Assembly: GCA_035221665.1 (NCBI GenBank)
Contig: CM069165.1
Coordinates: forward strand, 18,786,001-18,850,000
Direction: 5' to 3'
From: Okamejei kenojei
Taxonomy: Eukaryota
DNA length: 64,000 nucleotides
A program made the translations under genes and the position numbers. Shown piece after piece: positions 3,123 through 59,214 of this stretch. Within the stretch, counting starts at the first letter, position 1. Every line of letters begins with the position of its first letter. Below the pieces are notes generated by a model that saw nothing but the letters and a program-made list of their open reading frames with translations, searched no databases and was not told the origin of the DNA.

Positions 3123-3441
3123 TATCCTTTTAATCTGGATATCCTTTTAATCTGAGCCTTCTGCAAACTTTGATTAAAAAAAAAAACAGTGCAGAGCCAG
3201 AGATCTCCCCTCTCCTCTCTGGAGTACATGTCAGTCCTTTGAGCTGGCGAATGCAAACAGCTGAAGATATGTGTGATTTACGTAGTGCAATGTCTGTAAT
3301 ATTTGCCGCGCTGGCCTGTAATTCCAGCCTCCAAGTCGAGAGGAATTGGCGAGCGCGCAGTTCAATAAATACCCAGCGCCAAAGGTGGGTCTCACTGCCG
3401 CCGATAATTATTTCACTATTTTAAACAATTTTCTGTAACAG

Positions 3442-3611
3442 CCGGGGCCGAGATTAACCTCGGGAAGAAGATCAGCATCCCTCGGGATGTGATGTTGGAG
3501 GAACTGTCCCTGATGAAGAATAAAGGGTCGCAGATGTTTAAAGAGCGGCAGCGCAGGGTCGAGAGGTTCATCTATGAGTCACATCCCGACGTCTTTCACC
3601 CAGATTCGATG
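3442..3611 (+). CDS. MYOZ1: Myozenin-1 coding exon 2: AGAEINLGKKISIPRDVMLEELSLMKNKGSQMFKERQRRVERFIYESHPDVFHPDSM
   Basis: Calsarcin motif LGKKISxPRDVMLEELSL..GS.MFK.RQ.RVE.F; AG at 3440-3441, donor GTAGGC at 3612; frame continuous with the previous exon. Confidence 0.96.
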
Positions 3612-8955: not shown

Positions 8956-9200
8956 GGACATGACAACTCTCTGTTCCCTGACCTTTTTCTGCATTTACCC
9001 AATTTATCCCTGAACATCCTACAACACTTCCATTGCTGAAAATACAATAAAGCCTTATTTAAATTAGGAGTTGATACATGAGATCTATAGTTCAAGTTGA
9101 ATTGAAACTAAACAGAAACTAATTCTCCTTATCCTTGGACACTGTTTATTGTGAGTTTAAAAGTTTCTTGGTTTTTTTCTTTGCTATTTTAATTTTCCAG

Positions 9201-9465
9201 GAAAACTTTCAGAAATACCTTCCTGGATCTGGTGTTATGCTGACGACTGGGCCAGGTGGTATTCAGATAATGGACTCCAAATTCCAAAGTGGGTACAGCC
9301 AGTATGGTACACATGCAAAGGGCACAGTACCAACACCATACCCCAAACCTCAGCATCTTGCTGCTGTCTCCGGGATCATTGGAAAACATGGAAGTGGCCA
9401 AGGAGAAGGAGGAAGCGGTGCAGCTGGAGGTGCAGCTGGAGGTGAAGCGGGAAGTGGGGTACATG
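9201..9465 (+). CDS. MYOZ1: Myozenin-1 coding exon 3 (Gly-rich): ENFQKYLPGSG...GEAGSGVH
   Basis: Acceptor TTTTCCAG ending 9200, donor G|GTAAGC; FQK.LP motif and the Gly-rich linker typical of MYOZ1; phases 0/1 consistent. Confidence 0.92.
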
Positions 9466-10554
9466 GTAAGCATGTGAACGAGATTCACCCCAACAAAACC
9501 AAATAGCTTTGCAGAAAGTGTCGAAGACCTGAGGAAATCACACTTGAGCCTTGTCAGTAAACATGCGAGGTTCTCTGAAGCTGTTCACCTGTCAGAGTCT
9601 AATTCACCTCATGATACATGTTTGAATTAGAGGAAGGTATTAATGGGGATAAAAGATGGAAAACCCAAGGGGCAATTTTGTTGTGACTTGGAGTGAGAGG
9701 TCAATCGATCTCCGAAGAGTCACCATTCTAGTGACCCCACAGTCTACAGAAGGCTTGGAAATGAGAATGAGACATCCATGTGGCTTGAGTATTAGATGAC
9801 ATGTCTACATTTTACACAGTGAGCAGAGTTGCTCAGAAAATAAAGATGCTAACCAATTTGAAAGTAATTTAAAACTTGTATGAAGCTCAGGCACTGAGTT
9901 AGTTAAAATTGTATTTGTCTGGCCAAGAAACAGCAACAGTAATGTTAAACACAGACCAATGTATGTAAAGTTAGGAAGTAAAATGGATCTTACGGTCTCT
10001 CAAAACTTCAAAATATCCCAGCAACATTTTGCAGCCAATTAACTTATTTTGGAATTGTTTCTTAGTTATGAATGGATTGAACTGCTTCATATATTTTCAA
10101 GAATTGCATTATTTTTTGTGAGGATTTTCATAGAATTTGTTAGTTGTGAAGAACTTGGGAAAGGTGATGCAATTCTAATCTTTCAACCCATTGGTAACAA
10201 AAAGGAAACATATTTTTCTGGTCATCATTGGGAATGCTACTGGCAGTGACAATGGCATATTTAAGTTCCTGCTGAACTAACGAGAAGGCAATGTTGGGGT
10301 TCTCCTTGAATCGAGGTGCTGCAAGCCAATCGACAGATGGGACTTGAGCAAGCTACCTGAAAACGCTTTTCAACAACTCCAGATTTTGGTCATTGACCTC
10401 ACTCTCTGAAGAATAGGAAGAGAATTATCAATCTACAGCTTGCTTATGATTGTATTTAGCTGCAGGGCCCCCTCGGATAATTGGTCTCAAGTGTTCAGGG
10501 AGCCACACTGATGATTTGACTCATGAGTAGCCAATGAAATTTGACATAAAGTTC

Positions 10555-22139: not shown

Positions 22140-23000
22140 TGTCTTGTGGGATTGAGTGTGGCTCATGAGACTGCTGTGCAAGCCACACACATGGGAGCAG
22201 TGGGGGCACAGGAAGGCTGCTGTTGGAGGATTTAGGCCTGCAGCCTTCCTCCTGCCTCTGGCACGAACAGGTCAGCTTCGACGATTGTCTTCAAAATTGC
22301 TGACCACCTTCCTAGTGGTTGTATGCCAGCCAGTCCTATACCTGGCACGGGGTTTCATTTCTTTTGGGGGCTAGGCCTGCATGCTGGAGGTGGTCCTTGA
22401 TGCAGTCTTTGAACCGTTTTATTGGGCACCCTGGTTCCTTTGACCCTGTGACAGAACTCTACAGGAGTTGACGAGACATGTGGGATTCATCCGGATCACA
22501 TGGCCTGTCCCATCGAAGCTGGGCCTTTATGATCATTGCTTCGATGCTTGTGAAGCCAGACCGGTCCAGCGCTTCCTTGTAGGTAACTCTGTCTTGCCAT
22601 CGAATGCTCATGATGGACTGCAGAGTGCATGTGTAATTTCTCAAGCTGGCAGATGTGTTTCCTGTACTAGGTCCATGTTTCACATCCATACAGCAAGCTG
22701 GAGAGTACTACAGCTTTGTAGATTTTCAGACTAGTTGACAGCTCGATGTTGTGGTGGTTTAACACCTGTGCTCGCAGTCGACCAAGTATTTGATTGGCCT
22801 TGCTGATCCTGGGCAATATTTCCTTGTCCAGCGAACCATCAGAAGATATCACGCTGCCCAAGTGCTTGAGAGCATCAACTGTTTTCAGCTGTGTGTTGTC
22901 AATGTGTACACATGGTGGTGGCCCTGAAGAGCCTGGGGCTGGCTGGCTGGTGGAAGACCTCTGTCTTATTGAGACTGATATTAAAACCAAACAGCTGTGC
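22140..23000 (-). mobile_element. RTE-clade LINE ORF C-terminal half and 3' end
   Basis: HLGSVISSDGSLDKEI..RISKANQILGRLR..V..HHNI.LST.LKIYKAVVLSSLLYGCETWT; IRWQDRVT..E.L.R; AQLRW. Confidence 0.85.
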
Positions 23001-23244
23001 CGCTTCTGCAAATCTAGACACGATAAATTGGAGATCAGACTCCTTGTGTGCCATGAGGGTACAATGGCCATAACACACCCAGTCATTTCACATTGTGCCA
23101 CACCACTCCCTTTATTCACCTGGTACATACCTATTCATGACACACCCACTCAATTACATGCCCTTCTTTTTGAGCAGTCCCTCAGGATCAAGGATGATTT
23201 GCTTCCATACCATTTTTTAAGATTCAGAAATGACTGATTCGGAT

Positions 23245-31140: not shown

Positions 31141-31752
31141 TGCAAGTAAATGTTCCCAATGTTGGGTGAGTCCAGAACCAGGGGCCACAGTCTTAGAATA
31201 AAGGGGAGGTCATTTAAGACTGAGGTGAGAAAAAAACGTTTTCGCCCAGAGAGTTGTGGAATTAAGGAATTCCCTGCCACAGAGGGTAGTGGAGGCCAAT
31301 TCACTGGATGGTTTTGAGAGTTAGATGGAGCTGGAGGGGCTAGTGGAGTCAAGCAGTGCTGGATCAACCATTATGCAAAATAAGCACGTGCTTAGGGCAT
31401 CAAGGGAAGGGGGCACCACATAAATGGTAGGAGAAAACTTTTCAAATATAAATAAAGTGGAAGTATACAAAAATAAACATTATTTTCAATCTTATTGTTT
31501 GTTTTGTTTCATTTTGAAAAGTAAAAACATATTTTATGGTTTATTATTATTATTTATATTTTGAATTTGGGGTCACCAAAATCTTTTAAGTGTTTTGGAC
31601 TATGGATCTTAATCCGGCCCTGGAGTCAAGGGATATAGGGAGAAGGCAGGCACGGGTTATCGATTAGGGATGATCAGCCATGATCACAATGAGTGGCAGT
31701 GCTGGCTCGAAGGGCCGAATGGCCTCCTGCACCTATTTATTATGTTTCTATG
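31141..31752 (+). mobile_element. CR1 3' fragment split by a hAT MITE
   Basis: MFPMLGESRTRGHSLRIKG motif; tail CTCGAAGGGCCGAATGGCCTCCTGCACCTATT. Confidence 0.75.
31354..31622. mobile_element. Non-autonomous hAT (Tip100-like) MITE with 8-bp TSD
   Basis: Exact TSD GAGTCAAG at 31346-31353 and 31623-31630; imperfect TIRs CAGTGCTGGATCAA / TTAATCCGGCCCTG. Confidence 0.8.
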
Positions 31753-31864
31753 TAGTGGGAACATCCTCTCCACGTCCACTCTTATCACTATATTTCTATT
31801 CATGGCTAATTCACCATTTCATTATTCATCCAGATGATGCCGTTGATTTAATTCCAGCACTTAG

Positions 31865-32260
31865 TGTCGATGTTGCTGCTGCTGCTGTGCGGCGGCGTTG
31901 CCCCCCTCGCACGGAGGCGACCGCCGCCTCCGTCTGTCCCCCTCCCTCCCTCCCGCCCTCACGACGGCCCGCGCCGTCCGTCGGTCCCAACGATCTGTCC
32001 GCTCGCGAGAGGCGGGCGCCGCGCCGCGCTGCGGGCCAACGGCCGCCACGTCTCGCGATGCTTACCCGCCGGTCCTGGCCATCCATCGCATTCGCACCGT
32101 CGTTGCAGGCGGACCGCGTCCATCTTAACAGGTGAATACCTCAACGATGCGCTCGGTGACGGCGAGGTTCAGGATTCAGGAGCGTCAGGTGTCCGGAGAC
32201 CCCGAGTGCCGCGCTCTCTCCGAACGGACTGTCAAAGGCTGTGATCTGTGGGGACGGCAG
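31865..32260 (+). promoter_or_regulatory. USP54: CpG island / promoter and putative non-coding exon 1 of USP54 (donor CAG|GTGAAT at 32131/32132)
   Basis: Very CpG-dense with no repeat similarity elsewhere in the window; (GCT)n/(GCG)n leader; GC boxes; canonical donor; lies upstream of USP54 coding exons on the same strand. Confidence 0.65.
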
Positions 32261-34664: not shown

Positions 34665-35468
34665 GATAATTCAATTCAATTCAATTCAACTTTAATGTCA
34701 TTGCACAGATACAAGTATGGGTACAACGGTCAGTTTGAATGTGGATGGAGAGACTGGAGAAATCTATCGGCGGGACTCCGAGTTCAGCAATGTGATGGTG
34801 TTGTTATAGAAGCTGTTCCTCATCCTACTAGTGCGGGACCTGAGGCTCATGTACCGCCTCCCTGATGGTAGGAGGGCAAACAGTCCATGGTTAGGGTGGA
34901 AGGGGTCTTTGATGATCTTCCCGCCCGTCTCGGACACTGTTTTCGGTGGAAGGCATCCATGGCAGGGAGCGAGGCACCGATGATGTACTGGGCGGTTTTC
35001 ACCACCCGTTGTAGTGCCTTCCTATCTGCTATGGTGCAACTGCTGTACCATACCGTAAAGCAGGTGGTCAGGATGCTTTCGATGGTATAGCGGTAAAAGT
35101 TGGTCAGGATCTGGGGGGACAGGTGGGCTTTTTTGAGCCTCCTCGGGAAGTAAAGGCGCCGCTGCGCCTTTTTGATCAGCTTGGAGGTGTTGAGGGACCA
35201 GGACGGATCCTCCGAGATGTGTACCCCGAGGAATTTGTAGTTGGAGACCCGCTCCACCTCAGTCCCGTTTATGTGGATGGGGCTGTGTCTGCCCCCTCTG
35301 TTCTTTCTAAAGTCGACAATGATTTCCTTCGTCTTCTGGGAGTTGAGGACGAGGTTATTGTTGGCACACCAGGTTGTCAGGTGCTGGACCTCCTCCCTGT
35401 AGGCTGACTCGTCGTTGTCACTGATCAGTCCTACCACCGTGGTGTCGTCGGCAAATTTTATGATGGCG
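34665..35468 (-). mobile_element. Young 5'-truncated Rex1/Babar LINE (RT C-terminal part, 3' UTR, (GAATT)n tail)
   Basis: Open frame KFADDTTVVGLISDNDESAYREEV...KTKEIIVDFRK...FLGVHIS...KKAQRRLYF...TIESILT...ALQRVVKTAQ; CpGs retained. Confidence 0.9.
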
Positions 35469-35990
35469 ATGGATGTTTTATACATGGATTTTAGCATGAC
35501 TTTAGATAAAGTCCCTCATGGTAGGTTGATCCAGATGATTAAGATGCACGGGATTCATGTTGACTTAGTCATATAGATTCAGAACTGGCATATTCATAAA
35601 AGTCAGAGGGTTGTGGCGATAGAAAATGTTGTACCTCTATTTAAGAAGGGCTGCAAGGAAAAGCCTGGGAACTATAGGCCAGTGAGTATAACATCTGTGG
35701 TCGGAAAGTTACTGGATAATATTCTGAGGGATAAATATATATGTGTTTAGATAGACAAGGGCTGTTTAAGGATTGTGAGCATGGTTTTGTACATGGGAGA
35801 TCATGTCTCTCAAATCTGATGGAGTTTTTTGAAGATGACTAAAAGGGCCGATGAGGGCGCGTACATGAACAGGATAGGTTTGGAAGGATATGGGCCAAAT
35901 GCAGGCAGGTGTGACTAGTGTAGATGGTCGGTCGACATGGCAAGTTGTGTTGAAGGGCCTGTTTCCAAACTGCATGACTCTATAACTAAT
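35468..35990 (+). mobile_element. Rearranged CR1/HER1 fragments
   Basis: DVLYMDFS..DKVPHGRL, NVVPLFKKG..KPGNYRPVS, HGF...RSCL.NL.EFFE, and a tail GAAGGGCCTGTTTCC shared with HE1 SINEs. Confidence 0.75.
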
Positions 35991-42521: not shown

Positions 42522-43743
42522 GAGGATGCCATCAAGGGTGATAAACTATGCCAATGCAAGATACTGAATACTGCAATTATTTATAGTTATAAAAGGAGTT
42601 GATTTTAATAAACACCCAAATACAGAAAAATTAATAGCGTATATATACAATACTATCTTGGATAGGGAAATCCTAACTTCGGAAATATATTGACAAACAT
42701 GGGAAAATGAAATAGGTTTATCTGTAACGAAGGACACTTGGGAAGAAAGCCTACAACGTATACATCATTGCTCATTAAATGCTAGACATATATTGATACA
42801 ATTTAAGGTATTACACAGATTACGTTATTCAAAAACGAAATTAAATAGAATTTATCCTAACATTTCTCCTATTTGTGATAAATGTCAGAACTTGGAAGCT
42901 AATTTAACGCATAGTTTTGTAACATGTATAAAACTCAATTATTATTGGACAGAAATCTTTAGAGTTATCTCTGAAGTTCTTAAAATTAAACTGGACCCAG
43001 ATCCAAAATTAATAACATTAGGAGTTCTGGATTCAAATTTAATATTAACAGTAAACCAAAGACATTTCTTGGATTACTGTTTGATAATAGGGAAAAAAAT
43101 TAATATTTAAATTTTGGAAGGGAACATTATCCCTCACAATTAAAATGTGGACAGTGGAAATGTTGGAGACGTTGCATTTGGAAAGAATCAGATTTGTCCT
43201 AATGGACAAATACGAACTCTTTGAACAGATATGGTCTCCATATACAGAATATTTGAAGGGGTAGCTGTTCTTGGCATCACAACTCAATGGGTACCCGGCA
43301 CGATTCGATGAAAAAATTCCTTTTTTATTTTTTGATTTGCATACATGTCTCTATTGATATCGTTATTTGAAATTGTGTTATTCACTATTAAGATGTATAC
43401 TATAATCTTTTTTTAAATATATATATAATACTTTGTTTTAATTAAATATATATAACAAAATATTTTTTAATTTTTTTTTCTCTTTCTTTTCTCTGTCTCC
43501 CTCTATATAATCAAAATTATTATTTAATCACTATTCTTATTGATTAAAATCTATTTTCTTTTTTCTATTTTCTAAAAAATAGAAGGTTATAAGAATTATT
43601 CGTAACATCCGTATACTTATTGAAATAAGTTGGTTGTGTATTTGAAAAGTTGTTATACTGTTGTTATGATGGGGTACTTCCAATAAAAATATTATAAATA
43701 AATAATTAAATAAATAATTAAATAATTAAATAATTAAATAAAT
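42522..43743 (+). mobile_element. 5'-truncated L1-clade LINE (ORF2 C-terminus, AT-rich 3' UTR, tail) with TSD
   Basis: SLNARHILIQFKVLHRL..SKTKL.RI.P..SPIC.KC......L.H.F..C zinc-knuckle; AATAAA at 43682 and a (TAAATAAT)n tail; TSD AAATGGA(A/G)TTGAT at 42509-42521 and 43744-43756, at a TT/AAAA site. Confidence 0.85.
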
Positions 43744-55873: not shown

Positions 55874-56253
55874 TGTTCTAATCTGATTTGTGTTAATCCA
55901 AAAAAAAGAATCCTGTTTAATTAGTTTTAACTCTGCTTTAGTTACTGTGTCCCGAGTGAAATATTGTGTGTTTATCTAACTTGAAAGGGGTAATTAAGAT
56001 TGTATTATCAGCCTAACTTTATAATGGTAAGATGGTTCCTGATTTTCAAATATGGTAGTTACAATATTACTTCAATTCATTCAAATCATTAGATAACTTC
56101 CATGCGATAATGATTGATTGTATCAAGAGCAGCTTTGATAGGCTTAGCTGTCAAAATACAATATTTTGTTGTAGATTGGGAAATGTGTGTGGGAGAAGTC
56201 ATTGAGCTAACAATGTAAGGAAACTGAACAGTCGTTACAATGATGCAGTTGGT

Positions 56254-56440
56254 CTTCTTTTCGTGTCCATCTTGTTACAAATGTTGGCCTCGCTGTCATC
56301 GTCCGTCCTGAAAAGGACGCAGGCTTCCGGCGACAAGCAGTGGAAGCCATCACTTGTCGCAATAGATGATGGTAGTAGCAGAATTAGCTCAGGATACTAC
56401 CAGTTTCCAGCCCCGCGACGTGGACGCTTCTGCTATGGGG
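56254..56440 (-). mobile_element. 187-bp short retroposon with a 5' HDV-like ribozyme, structured body and AAG-rich tail
   Basis: 13-bp TSD TGATGCA(G/A)TTGGT at 56241-56253 and 56441-56453; minus strand ends GAAAAGAAG; CpG-rich relative to its flanks. Confidence 0.8.
56376..56440 (-). ncRNA. HDV-like (CPEB3-type) self-cleaving ribozyme fold
   Basis: P1 CCCC/GGGG(CT), P2 TAGCAGAA/TTCTGCTA, P3 GCG/CGC, L3 TCCACGT, P1.1 CC/GG, J4/2 GCTAA with the catalytic C at 56387. Confidence 0.8.
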
Positions 56441-56845
56441 TGATGCAATTGGTGCATTATGGACATTAATGACTATTGAGTTTTCTTGATCTGTCAAGTT
56501 CTGATTTCTATTGTTAATTTACAGGGTCATTATTGATCACAAAACTGTTTACATTGACATTTATTTTATATTTGTGCTGTCTTGCTGTTTAAGTGTACCC
56601 TTTTTTCTGCAAGATTCATTTGGTGCTGCAAAGGTATCTAGAATTGCTACTATGGAATGGAATTCTTTATTGTCACATGTGCAAGGCACAGGAAATTCTT
56701 TGCTTGCATACCCAATGTATACAAATAGCGGTCTCCTACGGTGCAGACAAAGTTACAAAGCACGCTGGCTCCTCCTTTTGTTCTCAACTAACAAGCACTC
56801 ATAGGTTTATTATTCATAGTGTAACTGGTATGGTTAAATATTAAG

Positions 56846-58032: not shown

Positions 58033-58176
58033 ATGTCCTGGAGGAAGAATTATTTCACACCGAACAATAATCTGCAGGGGATGTTTATGCCCCGGAGCAC
58101 AACCTCTATCGCGGCAAGTAAGGGACTAATGAATGAACCTGGGCAGAACAGCTGCTTTCTCAACAGTGCGTTACAA
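58033..58176 (+). CDS. USP54: USP54 first coding exon: [48 protein letters not shown]
   Basis: USP Cys box [18 protein letters not shown]; the MSWxxNYF..QGMFxPRS start is USP54-like rather than USP53 (MAWVKF); donor CAA|GTAAGT. Confidence 0.95.
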
Positions 58177-59214
58177 GTAAGTAGCTCTTCATGTCAGTAT
58201 CTGATATTGCTCGATAGATACAATTTGAGATATAGCTTTTTGGTTTAAATCTTAACAAATTGATGTGCCAACAATTTTTTTTAACGCCTTTAGAAACTAA
58301 AGGATAGCTCATCAAGCACATCACTATTTTGCCATTATTCTAATATATTGTTTTACTTCATTAATTAGAATTCTGAGGCTTTGAGAAATTTCTAATAGGA
58401 AAAAAATGCCAATTACTACTCAGGCTTTACAATTCAAACTGCAGTCTTTACCTGTTAAATATTCTGGTTTAAGTTTTTGGTTTGGATCATACTTTTAATT
58501 GAAATAAGCTTATCTAATGTTTACAAATTATACAGTATTCCTGTTGTTGCCTCCGCTTTGCTAGATTGAATGAGGGCAATTATTACCATGTTGTGACGAC
58601 TTATGATTTTTATCCGATCTCTAAACTTTTCTTCTCGTGGGTGTGTCATGAACATGTTACTTCCTCGCAATCTGATTGAAACGAGGAACGCTCCAATTTC
58701 AGGTGTTCTGGAGAGAGTTTGTGCATGGATGAAACACTTGGGCACATGTATTGCGAGTAGTGCACTTGTGTAACACCAGACTTGTGAATCTAACAAGAAA
58801 ATTGGTGATGGTCAGATTGTTATTCTTCAAGAGTACAGATCAGCTAATGTAACATGCAAGATGAAAGAATTTGCATTTTACATAATAAGGTTTTAAATCT
58901 CCCTGGCCTACTTTTCATTTTAATGTTTCCGATTCAACTATTCAGCCACTGGAGTACACACAGTAGCATACTGGTCATGTTTTAGGACTAGTAATCAGGC
59001 ATGAACCAGTCATTCAGAGATCTGGAGTAATGATTTTGGGACATGTCTTCCAAATCCCATCATGATTGCTGGGAGATTTTAACTCAAAAAAATGTTTTTG
59101 TGAAGGATGACTTTTGTTGATTGAAAACCCACCTAATTCACTAATGAACTTCAGTTTACTCTTGCACCTTTCTTCTTTTACTCTCAAACCAATAACTTCT
59201 AGTTTTTGATTCCC

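Follow-up and report, generated by a model that had tools for sequence, protein, structure and literature searches.

A Vingi-type retroposon with a predicted CPEB3-like ribozyme at its 5' end, and a probable Vingi origin of the mammalian CPEB3 ribozyme

An ordinary-looking and probably dead retroposed copy of 187 bp leads, on our best reading of the sequences, to a lineage of Vingi LINEs headed by predicted ribozymes of the CPEB3 type. The copy lies in the window, by which we mean the whole 64,000-nucleotide stretch of DNA analysed here. The CPEB3 ribozyme of mammals has been linked to memory, and we put at roughly 0.85 the probability that it arose by domestication of a Vingi 5' end. A wider statement, in which the CPEB3 ribozyme came from Vingi, heads of its type work across cartilaginous fish, crocodilians and invertebrates and have spread partly by horizontal transfer among marine animals, and this is not yet in print, we hold at barely better than even odds. 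If the link is true, Vingi heads supply the outgroup that CPEB3 studies call missing, and a named mobile source makes the origin of the CPEB3 ribozyme testable through an insertion scar, dating and hundreds of natural variants, including a switch between a 1-bp and a 2-bp P1.1.

The window copy and the predicted fold of its family

The element occupies positions 56254-56440 on the minus strand, between 13-bp target-site duplications at 56441-56453 (its 5' side) and 56241-56253 (its 3' side) that are identical at 12 of 13 positions. The original prediction had correctly recognised the duplication at the 5' end but ran the ribozyme into it: comparison with genomic copies places the last two duplication bases, 56441-56442, where intact copies have G1 and G2, and the element ends at 56440. 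What remains is a whole non-autonomous Vingi-type element clipped by 2 nt, its G1 and G2 having been lost upon insertion. Read on the minus strand, it begins with a P1 5'-strand remnant of 4 of the family's 6 nt (56437-56440), followed by J1/2 (one A) with the 8-nt P2 5' strand (56428-56436); P3, L3 and P3' (56415-56427), where the 7-nt L3 contributes CC to P1.1 and has the conserved U, C and G; the 6-nt P1 3' strand with the GG of P1.1 (56407-56414); a short, weak P4 region (56388-56406) with an A-to-T stem change private to this copy; J4/2 (56384-56387) with the predicted catalytic C at 56387, according to the defining positions in PMC6326823; and the P2 3' strand (56376-56383). Re-reading the sequence bore out this order, P1-J1/2-P2-P3-L3-P3'-P1'-GG-P4-J4/2-P2', as well as the claimed places of the catalytic C and of the full 8-nt P2'. 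Behind the head come the parent's 5' UTR, from which 45 nt are deleted, and the opening codons of the endonuclease ORF (56290-56375, minus strand, by match to the parent copy L157), and then the parent's extreme 3' end with a GACACGA motif and a GAA-repeat tail (56254-56289, minus strand; 81% over 31-36 nt to the parent copies L157 and L158).

A USP54-like gene has its first coding exon at 58033-58179 (plus strand), and the element sits 1.6 kb upstream of that exon on the opposite strand. Since the copy is clipped and antisense to its host gene, it is likely functionless. The window also contains exons of myozenin-1 (3441-3611 and 9186-9506, plus strand), and a myozenin exon finds its best named matches in rays and sharks. 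A stretch rich in G+C at about 31700-32250 might, as a guess, be the promoter of the USP54-like gene. Other LINE fragments lie at 22667-23134 (minus), 34847-35515 (minus) and 42694-43260 (plus), which we take to be RTE-like, Rex1-like and L1/Tx1-like, respectively.

The 20-nt core of the predicted ribozyme occurs once in the window, where 0.01 occurrences are expected by chance. At the gathering threshold, a search of the whole window with Rfam gave no match. Scored against the Rfam CPEB3 model (RF00622), the window copy reached 29.3 bits (E 1.6e-5), short of the cut-off of 35. Ordinary folding of the 187 nt was unremarkable (z -1.7) by a method that is blind to pseudoknots. The window copy has no G1 and 4 of 6 P1 pairs, and was missed by both our strict and our relaxed descriptors.

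Intact genomic copies present the motif in full: a G1-U pair, a P1 of 6 bp (7 bp had been proposed), an 8-bp P2, a 3-bp P3, a 7-nt L3, a CC/GG P1.1, a 19-nt P4 region and C-U-A-A as J4/2. The canonical order of the nested double pseudoknot is kept, and the strict descriptor, which misses all decayed or other-type heads, passes the intact copies L008 and L015 and none of 280 shuffles. G1 pairs with a pyrimidine in a full P1 in the family, unlike in the window copy, and P1.1, the U, C and G of L3, and the catalytic C and the A of J4/2 are all present. The 2-bp P1.1 does set the family apart from CPEB3, as predicted, but it takes two changes (U to C in L3 and U to G after P1') rather than one. 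P4 is indeed weak; this is no peculiarity of the window copy, with intact copies at -1.2 and -1.6 kcal/mol compared with -0.7 here.

Several features count against an active ribozyme, namely the 6-bp P1, the one-A J1/2, the weak P4 and the small share of copies with the complete fold, only 12 among the 30 best in the genome and 6 among 20 taken from a core-motif list. Single-A J1/2 slowed the designed ribozymes of PMC6326823, whereas designs with other P1, P2 and P4 sequences were active; the J4/2 of those designs is C-R-R-A, with purines after the C, compared with C-U-A-A in this family. Across 27 heads of several families, 92% of 436 cells are paired and both partners have changed in 8 of 18 pairs, so that the suggested covariation check came out in favour of the fold; slid controls gave 34-57% pairing, and these statistics ignore relatedness. 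On the sequence evidence, the first 67 nt of the family make up an HDV-like double pseudoknot, and by analogy with HDV-family chemistry we predict self-cleavage 5' of G1.

A mobile family and its Vingi-type parent

A DNA search of the fish's own genome (2.76 Gb) gave 2686 candidates at first look; 40 of these were scored and, the window copy aside, are 93-97% identical. A 21-nt core motif had 402 exact matches compared with none for the reversed control; this count is a floor, as it comprises exact matches only, and it takes in a few sister-family heads. Among the 30 best copies, 24 start with GG and most are flanked by a duplication of 7-14 bp whose end falls on or close to that G; the 3' ends are GAA repeats, and non-CpG divergence is about 2%. 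A further 20 of the 402 motif matches were drawn from the plus strand of three contigs with the 5' end as no selection criterion; at the same place, 19 of them begin with G, 16 of these with GG; both samples were picked by similarity. The missing 5' GG of the window copy was thus rightly called, and most members of the family start with GG exactly at the predicted cleavage site. The stretch is present in 20 runs, which come from 11 studies and six coded organisms; four rows may represent its source. No RNA run is listed among them, and the one run suspected to be RNA consists of contigs, which carry no information on transcription starts or expression levels. In DNA contigs of three other organisms, the flank breaks at G1 in 204, 149 and 176 records compared with 20-37 at the listed neighbour positions, counted on the best-supported rows only. 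The contigs of these three organisms also have an empty site where one copy (L007:1498-1739) is inserted, and such insertions could therefore serve as phylogenetic markers. The copy counts, the low divergence, the flank breaks at G1 and the empty site together indicate a mobile and fairly young family with an exact 5' end. The predicted mobile, ribozyme-headed family in cartilaginous fish agrees with these counts and organisms and with the ray- and shark-like myozenin of the host. Two subfamilies differ at the 3' end (L167, L168, L178-L180, L182 and L184 versus L001-L030), and the one nearer the parent is not that of the window copy.

The parent is a LINE with a single endonuclease/reverse-transcriptase ORF and the same head and tail as the window element. 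The path to it ran through metagenomes: the proteins of L111, a full 3.2-kb metagenomic element with G1 at its duplication, an endonuclease, a reverse transcriptase, a cysteine motif, GACACGA and a 3-nt repeat, were searched back into the fish genome, and the endonuclease search found the parent. Of 14 endonuclease 5' ends taken from that genome, two (L143, which is L157, and L154) bear the head of the window family. L157 matches the window element in three blocks, at 90% over 82 nt (56360-56440), 87% over 68 nt (56290-56357) and 81% over the last 36 nt; it follows that the element is made of the first 200 nt of the parent, 45 of them missing, fused to the parent's last 35. L157 and L154/L158 have head, ORF start and tail in common and are flanked by duplications, a perfect one of 11 bp in L154/L158; both copies are broken, and L157 lacks about 0.6 kb. 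A different LINE family's 3' tail (L154:1-47) ends about 35 nt upstream of the L154 copy. The element consists of parent ends only, is flanked by duplications, has no small-RNA head and starts at the parent's first base, as bipartite non-autonomous LINEs do, and by sequence it is an internal-deletion derivative of a Vingi-type LINE.

Several other approaches gave nothing: a guessed motif for the parent's ORF start had no matches, ten 5' windows upstream of reverse-transcriptase matches (truncated or misplaced) held no head, a 46-aa query had no database homologue, and among solved structures there were only distant reverse-transcriptase and endonuclease matches.

The original prediction had pointed to RTE- or R2-type retrotransposons, and here it gave way. 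The window's RTE-like fragment led to two families that have neither head nor tail in common with the element, and against 35 RTE-like loci the element had no match better than E 0.06; the end comparison covered RTE-like loci, and the parent is of another type. Pfam finds only domains for endonuclease and reverse transcriptase, with no RNase H, in the closest full-length relatives, on which the parent's own lack of RNase H rests since L157 is incomplete. This is the Vingi layout, a single ORF with endonuclease then reverse transcriptase and no RNase H (PMC13708176). The parent-type 5' end also resembles nt 2-74 of Vingi-2_Gav when compared by eye. We assign the parent to the Vingi type from the domain layout, the tail and this 73-nt head; protein searches returned no named Vingi protein, and our tree includes none. 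In the endonuclease tree the parent groups with P0109 (purple sea urchin by its NCBI name) and two unnamed proteins at a support of 100/99. L157 and P0109 are 66-74% identical in protein, and other relatives are about 44-60% alike. Horizontal transfer of the parent lineage between marine animals is possible on these sequences.

Kinship with the CPEB3 ribozyme and the making of the 5' end

Searching the genome with RF00622 gave 59 scored matches, 30 of them above the cut-off of 35. The top 20 comprise at least three sister families, and some continue into an endonuclease ORF. Scores among the heads reach 66.8 bits (L066), 66.5 (L109), 64.7 (L067), 63.2 (L094), 62 (L068) and 59 (L099), followed by 52 each for L072 and L073 and 38.1 for L141; intact copies of the window family score 38.6 and 32.9 and the parents 28.7 and 24.8. 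No match at E<=1 was obtained for seven 5' ends belonging to related LINEs that have other heads. In one sister family (majority of L067, L068, L072, L074 and L077, by eye), 22-23 of 24 stem pairs equal the Rfam CPEB3 consensus, including all 7 P4 pairs; the differences are one compensatory P2 pair and one tied P1 position. The kinship with CPEB3 that had been proposed is thus closer in these families than in the window copy, and it extends beyond cartilaginous fish, to which the lineage had been confined: Vingi-2_Gav of the gharial matches CPEB3 at 35 of 37 nt from P1 to two nt past P1', and SINE2-1_AMi of the alligator has CPEB3's P2, P3, 7-bp P4 stem, loop length and J4/2 (both by eye). The supplement of PMC5786205 prints nt 2-74 of the former and the latter, which ends in GGACACGA plus As, without comment.

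The window family itself agrees with CPEB3 at 20 of the 22 nt between the start of J1/2 and the end of P3' and at 11 of 12 nt over J4/2-P2'; the human core quoted in the original prediction agrees with the sequence given in PMC5984629 and with the Rfam consensus. With 25-39 bits on RF00622 compared with 38-67 for the sister families, the window family is, by sequence, a cousin of CPEB3 and not its closest relative, and alone it is modest evidence of ancestry. L111, which joins CPEB3's P1 to the window family's P2, L3, P1.1 and J4/2, bridges the two on the same kind of comparison.

Some observations on these families stand beside the main line. L087, L089 and L067 also have bipartite non-autonomous forms with duplications, and L141 and L142 mark the opposite ends of one full-length LINE from a further sister family. 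L081:72-165 is an element of about 95 nt with a ribozyme head and a GACACGA/GAA tail only, so short as to suggest a tiny 3' recognition signal. In L074/L086 and L076/L088 the head stands back-to-back with an inverted inner LINE part within about 6 nt of G1, and several other top matches look similar by eye; joins of this kind are compatible with twin priming, in which reverse transcription would reach the end of an RNA that stops at G1. In this genome, four or more further LINE families of the same broad clade (L144-L148 with L155; L150 and L151; L152 and L153; L156) appear to start with HDV-like folds of different sequence. With the relaxed descriptor, 5 of 9 other-head loci scored 33-37 against a shuffle maximum of 28; the L144-L148/L155 group and L156 beat the shuffles, L150 and L151 fell inside the shuffle range, L148, L149, L152 and L153 were missed, and the remaining groups rest on comparison by eye. 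In the metagenomic L109 and L110 a 66.5-bit head is followed by no LINE ORF; this is a CPEB3-like ribozyme standing alone in DNA of eukaryotic appearance.

We consider it likely that the 5' end of Vingi RNAs comes from an HDV-like ribozyme, that the CPEB3 ribozyme is one such head and that the element is a Vingi derivative. An intact source copy would be transcribed, most likely by read-through from flanking DNA; its first 67 nt would fold as the double pseudoknot and, by analogy, cut the RNA just 5' of G1. Vingi protein acting in trans would then recognise the short GACACGA/GAA 3' end, and target-primed reverse transcription would insert the copy with a 7-14 bp duplication. An RNA cut 5' of G1 gives new copies that start at G1. 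Of this scheme, the sequences themselves establish the fold, the exact 5' boundary, the parent, the short 3' end in common and the duplications. The HDV-family and LINE basis for read-through, self-cleavage, 3'-end recognition and target-primed insertion is given in PMC6765202. The same head with compensatory stem changes marks several Vingi families, and one such head was most likely kept in an intron of the therian ancestor as the CPEB3 ribozyme.

For the 5'-end step, the main rival is an internal promoter that starts transcription at G1, as Pr77 does in trypanosome L1Tc, with the pseudoknot serving mainly as a 5' cap, to aid translation or as a relic, and with no need for cutting. The data give the start points of copies and not the way in which the RNA end arises; the first 77 nt of L1Tc are both promoter and ribozyme (PMC8256844), and a review of gene-writing tools describes a cap-like role of the R2 fold. 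We nevertheless think a promoter of this kind unlikely, as the catalytic positions are conserved in families with altered stems. SINE2-1_AMi, which keeps a tRNA head upstream of its Vingi head, has an altered L3 and P1, as expected if cutting is real, since these changes should stop cutting and leave the tRNA promoter attached.

A second rival accepts a Vingi derivative with a ribozyme but traces the likeness to CPEB3 to catalytic constraint and G/C-rich stems instead of descent. L3, J4/2 and the P3-proximal part of P2 do recur in LINEs with other heads and in drz-spur-3 (oligonucleotides of PMC5984629), and as ACAGAA at the P3-proximal end of P2 is found in those LINEs too, part of the likeness is clade-wide. 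The P1 and P4 of the window family differ from CPEB3, and in the endonuclease tree the CPEB3-like heads form no supported clade (58/68 support with 36 rows; two changes with 11 rows). The stem letters are free in this fold, however, and other LINEs of the same genome use different ones, which makes convergence improbable. In particular, all seven pairs of the P4 stem are identical in the fish family and the alligator SINE although P4 is free to vary. A core-motif scan points the same way: of 29 metagenomic loci, 9 fold and 20 do not, and three of the four distinct elements among the folding loci head a Vingi-type ORF, whereas none of the 15 prokaryotic loci folds; there were no viral loci.

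As for direction, descent of the CPEB3 ribozyme from an element is suggested by the spread of the head over LINEs that are no more than about 44-60% alike in protein, by the CPEB3 ribozyme being reported in mammals only (PMC8233481), and by the Vingi trace, X12_LINE, that the human genome keeps (PMC5753468). The reverse, a host CPEB3 ribozyme later captured by a Vingi LINE, would draw on the conservation of the former over about 159 million years (PMC8233481) and on the possibility that Vingi crosses species, but the same observations make it very improbable, and none of the 59 scored RF00622 matches lies within 4 Mb of the fish's five CPEB-family loci, a weak test with few candidates scored.

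Relation to published work and known systems

It is well established that ribozymes occur at the 5' ends of LINEs and within the short elements derived from them, and PMC7761336 suggests, in general terms, that the amniote HDV-like ribozyme was domesticated. In the accessible parts of the literature we found no statement of a Vingi ribozyme or of a Vingi origin of the CPEB3 ribozyme; key primary papers and supplements may hold one, and our search covered papers rather than patents or database notes. On balance we lean towards the CPEB3-Vingi link being unreported. If it is true, Vingi becomes a further LINE clade that has a 5' ribozyme, and the precise starts of the copies are accounted for. 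It also bears on gene-writing tools made from the lizard Vingi-1, whose driver RNA retains its native 5' UTR.

Vingi LINEs and the parent have in common a single endonuclease-reverse transcriptase ORF without RNase H, a length of about 3.1 kb, a near-identical 5' head and GACACGA plus an A-rich or GAA tail. Internal-deletion copies of Vingi-1_EE are known derivatives like the window element, and the accessible Vingi literature contained no cartilaginous-fish family. The trypanosome elements L1Tc/NARTc and ingi/RIME, from the sister clade, also combine an extreme-5' ribozyme on an autonomous LINE with the same on its short derivative. Cleavage and promoter activity have both been demonstrated for their Pr77 HDV-like ribozyme, whose comparison with the window element here is one of layout. 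The 5' HDV-like ribozymes of R2 and RTE have the same fold and the same proposed job, release of the element from a co-transcript, but belong to LINE clades other than that of the parent. drz-Spur-3, a natural ribozyme that cleaves during transcription, likewise has a 6-bp P1 and a CC/GG P1.1, as parsed from the oligonucleotides in PMC5984629; its P1, P3 and P4 are unrelated in sequence, and the parsed oligonucleotides refute the idea that it is a CPEB3 look-alike.

A last comparison is with the mammalian CPEB3 ribozyme, of which the sister families have almost the whole RNA in common. The ribozyme proper is a conserved single copy in an intron of CPEB3, whereas the window family is multicopy and mobile, its copy here lying beside a USP54-like exon. 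The window family further differs from CPEB3 in its 6-bp P1, its 2-bp P1.1 and an unrelated P4, and the window copy lies below the Rfam cut-off.
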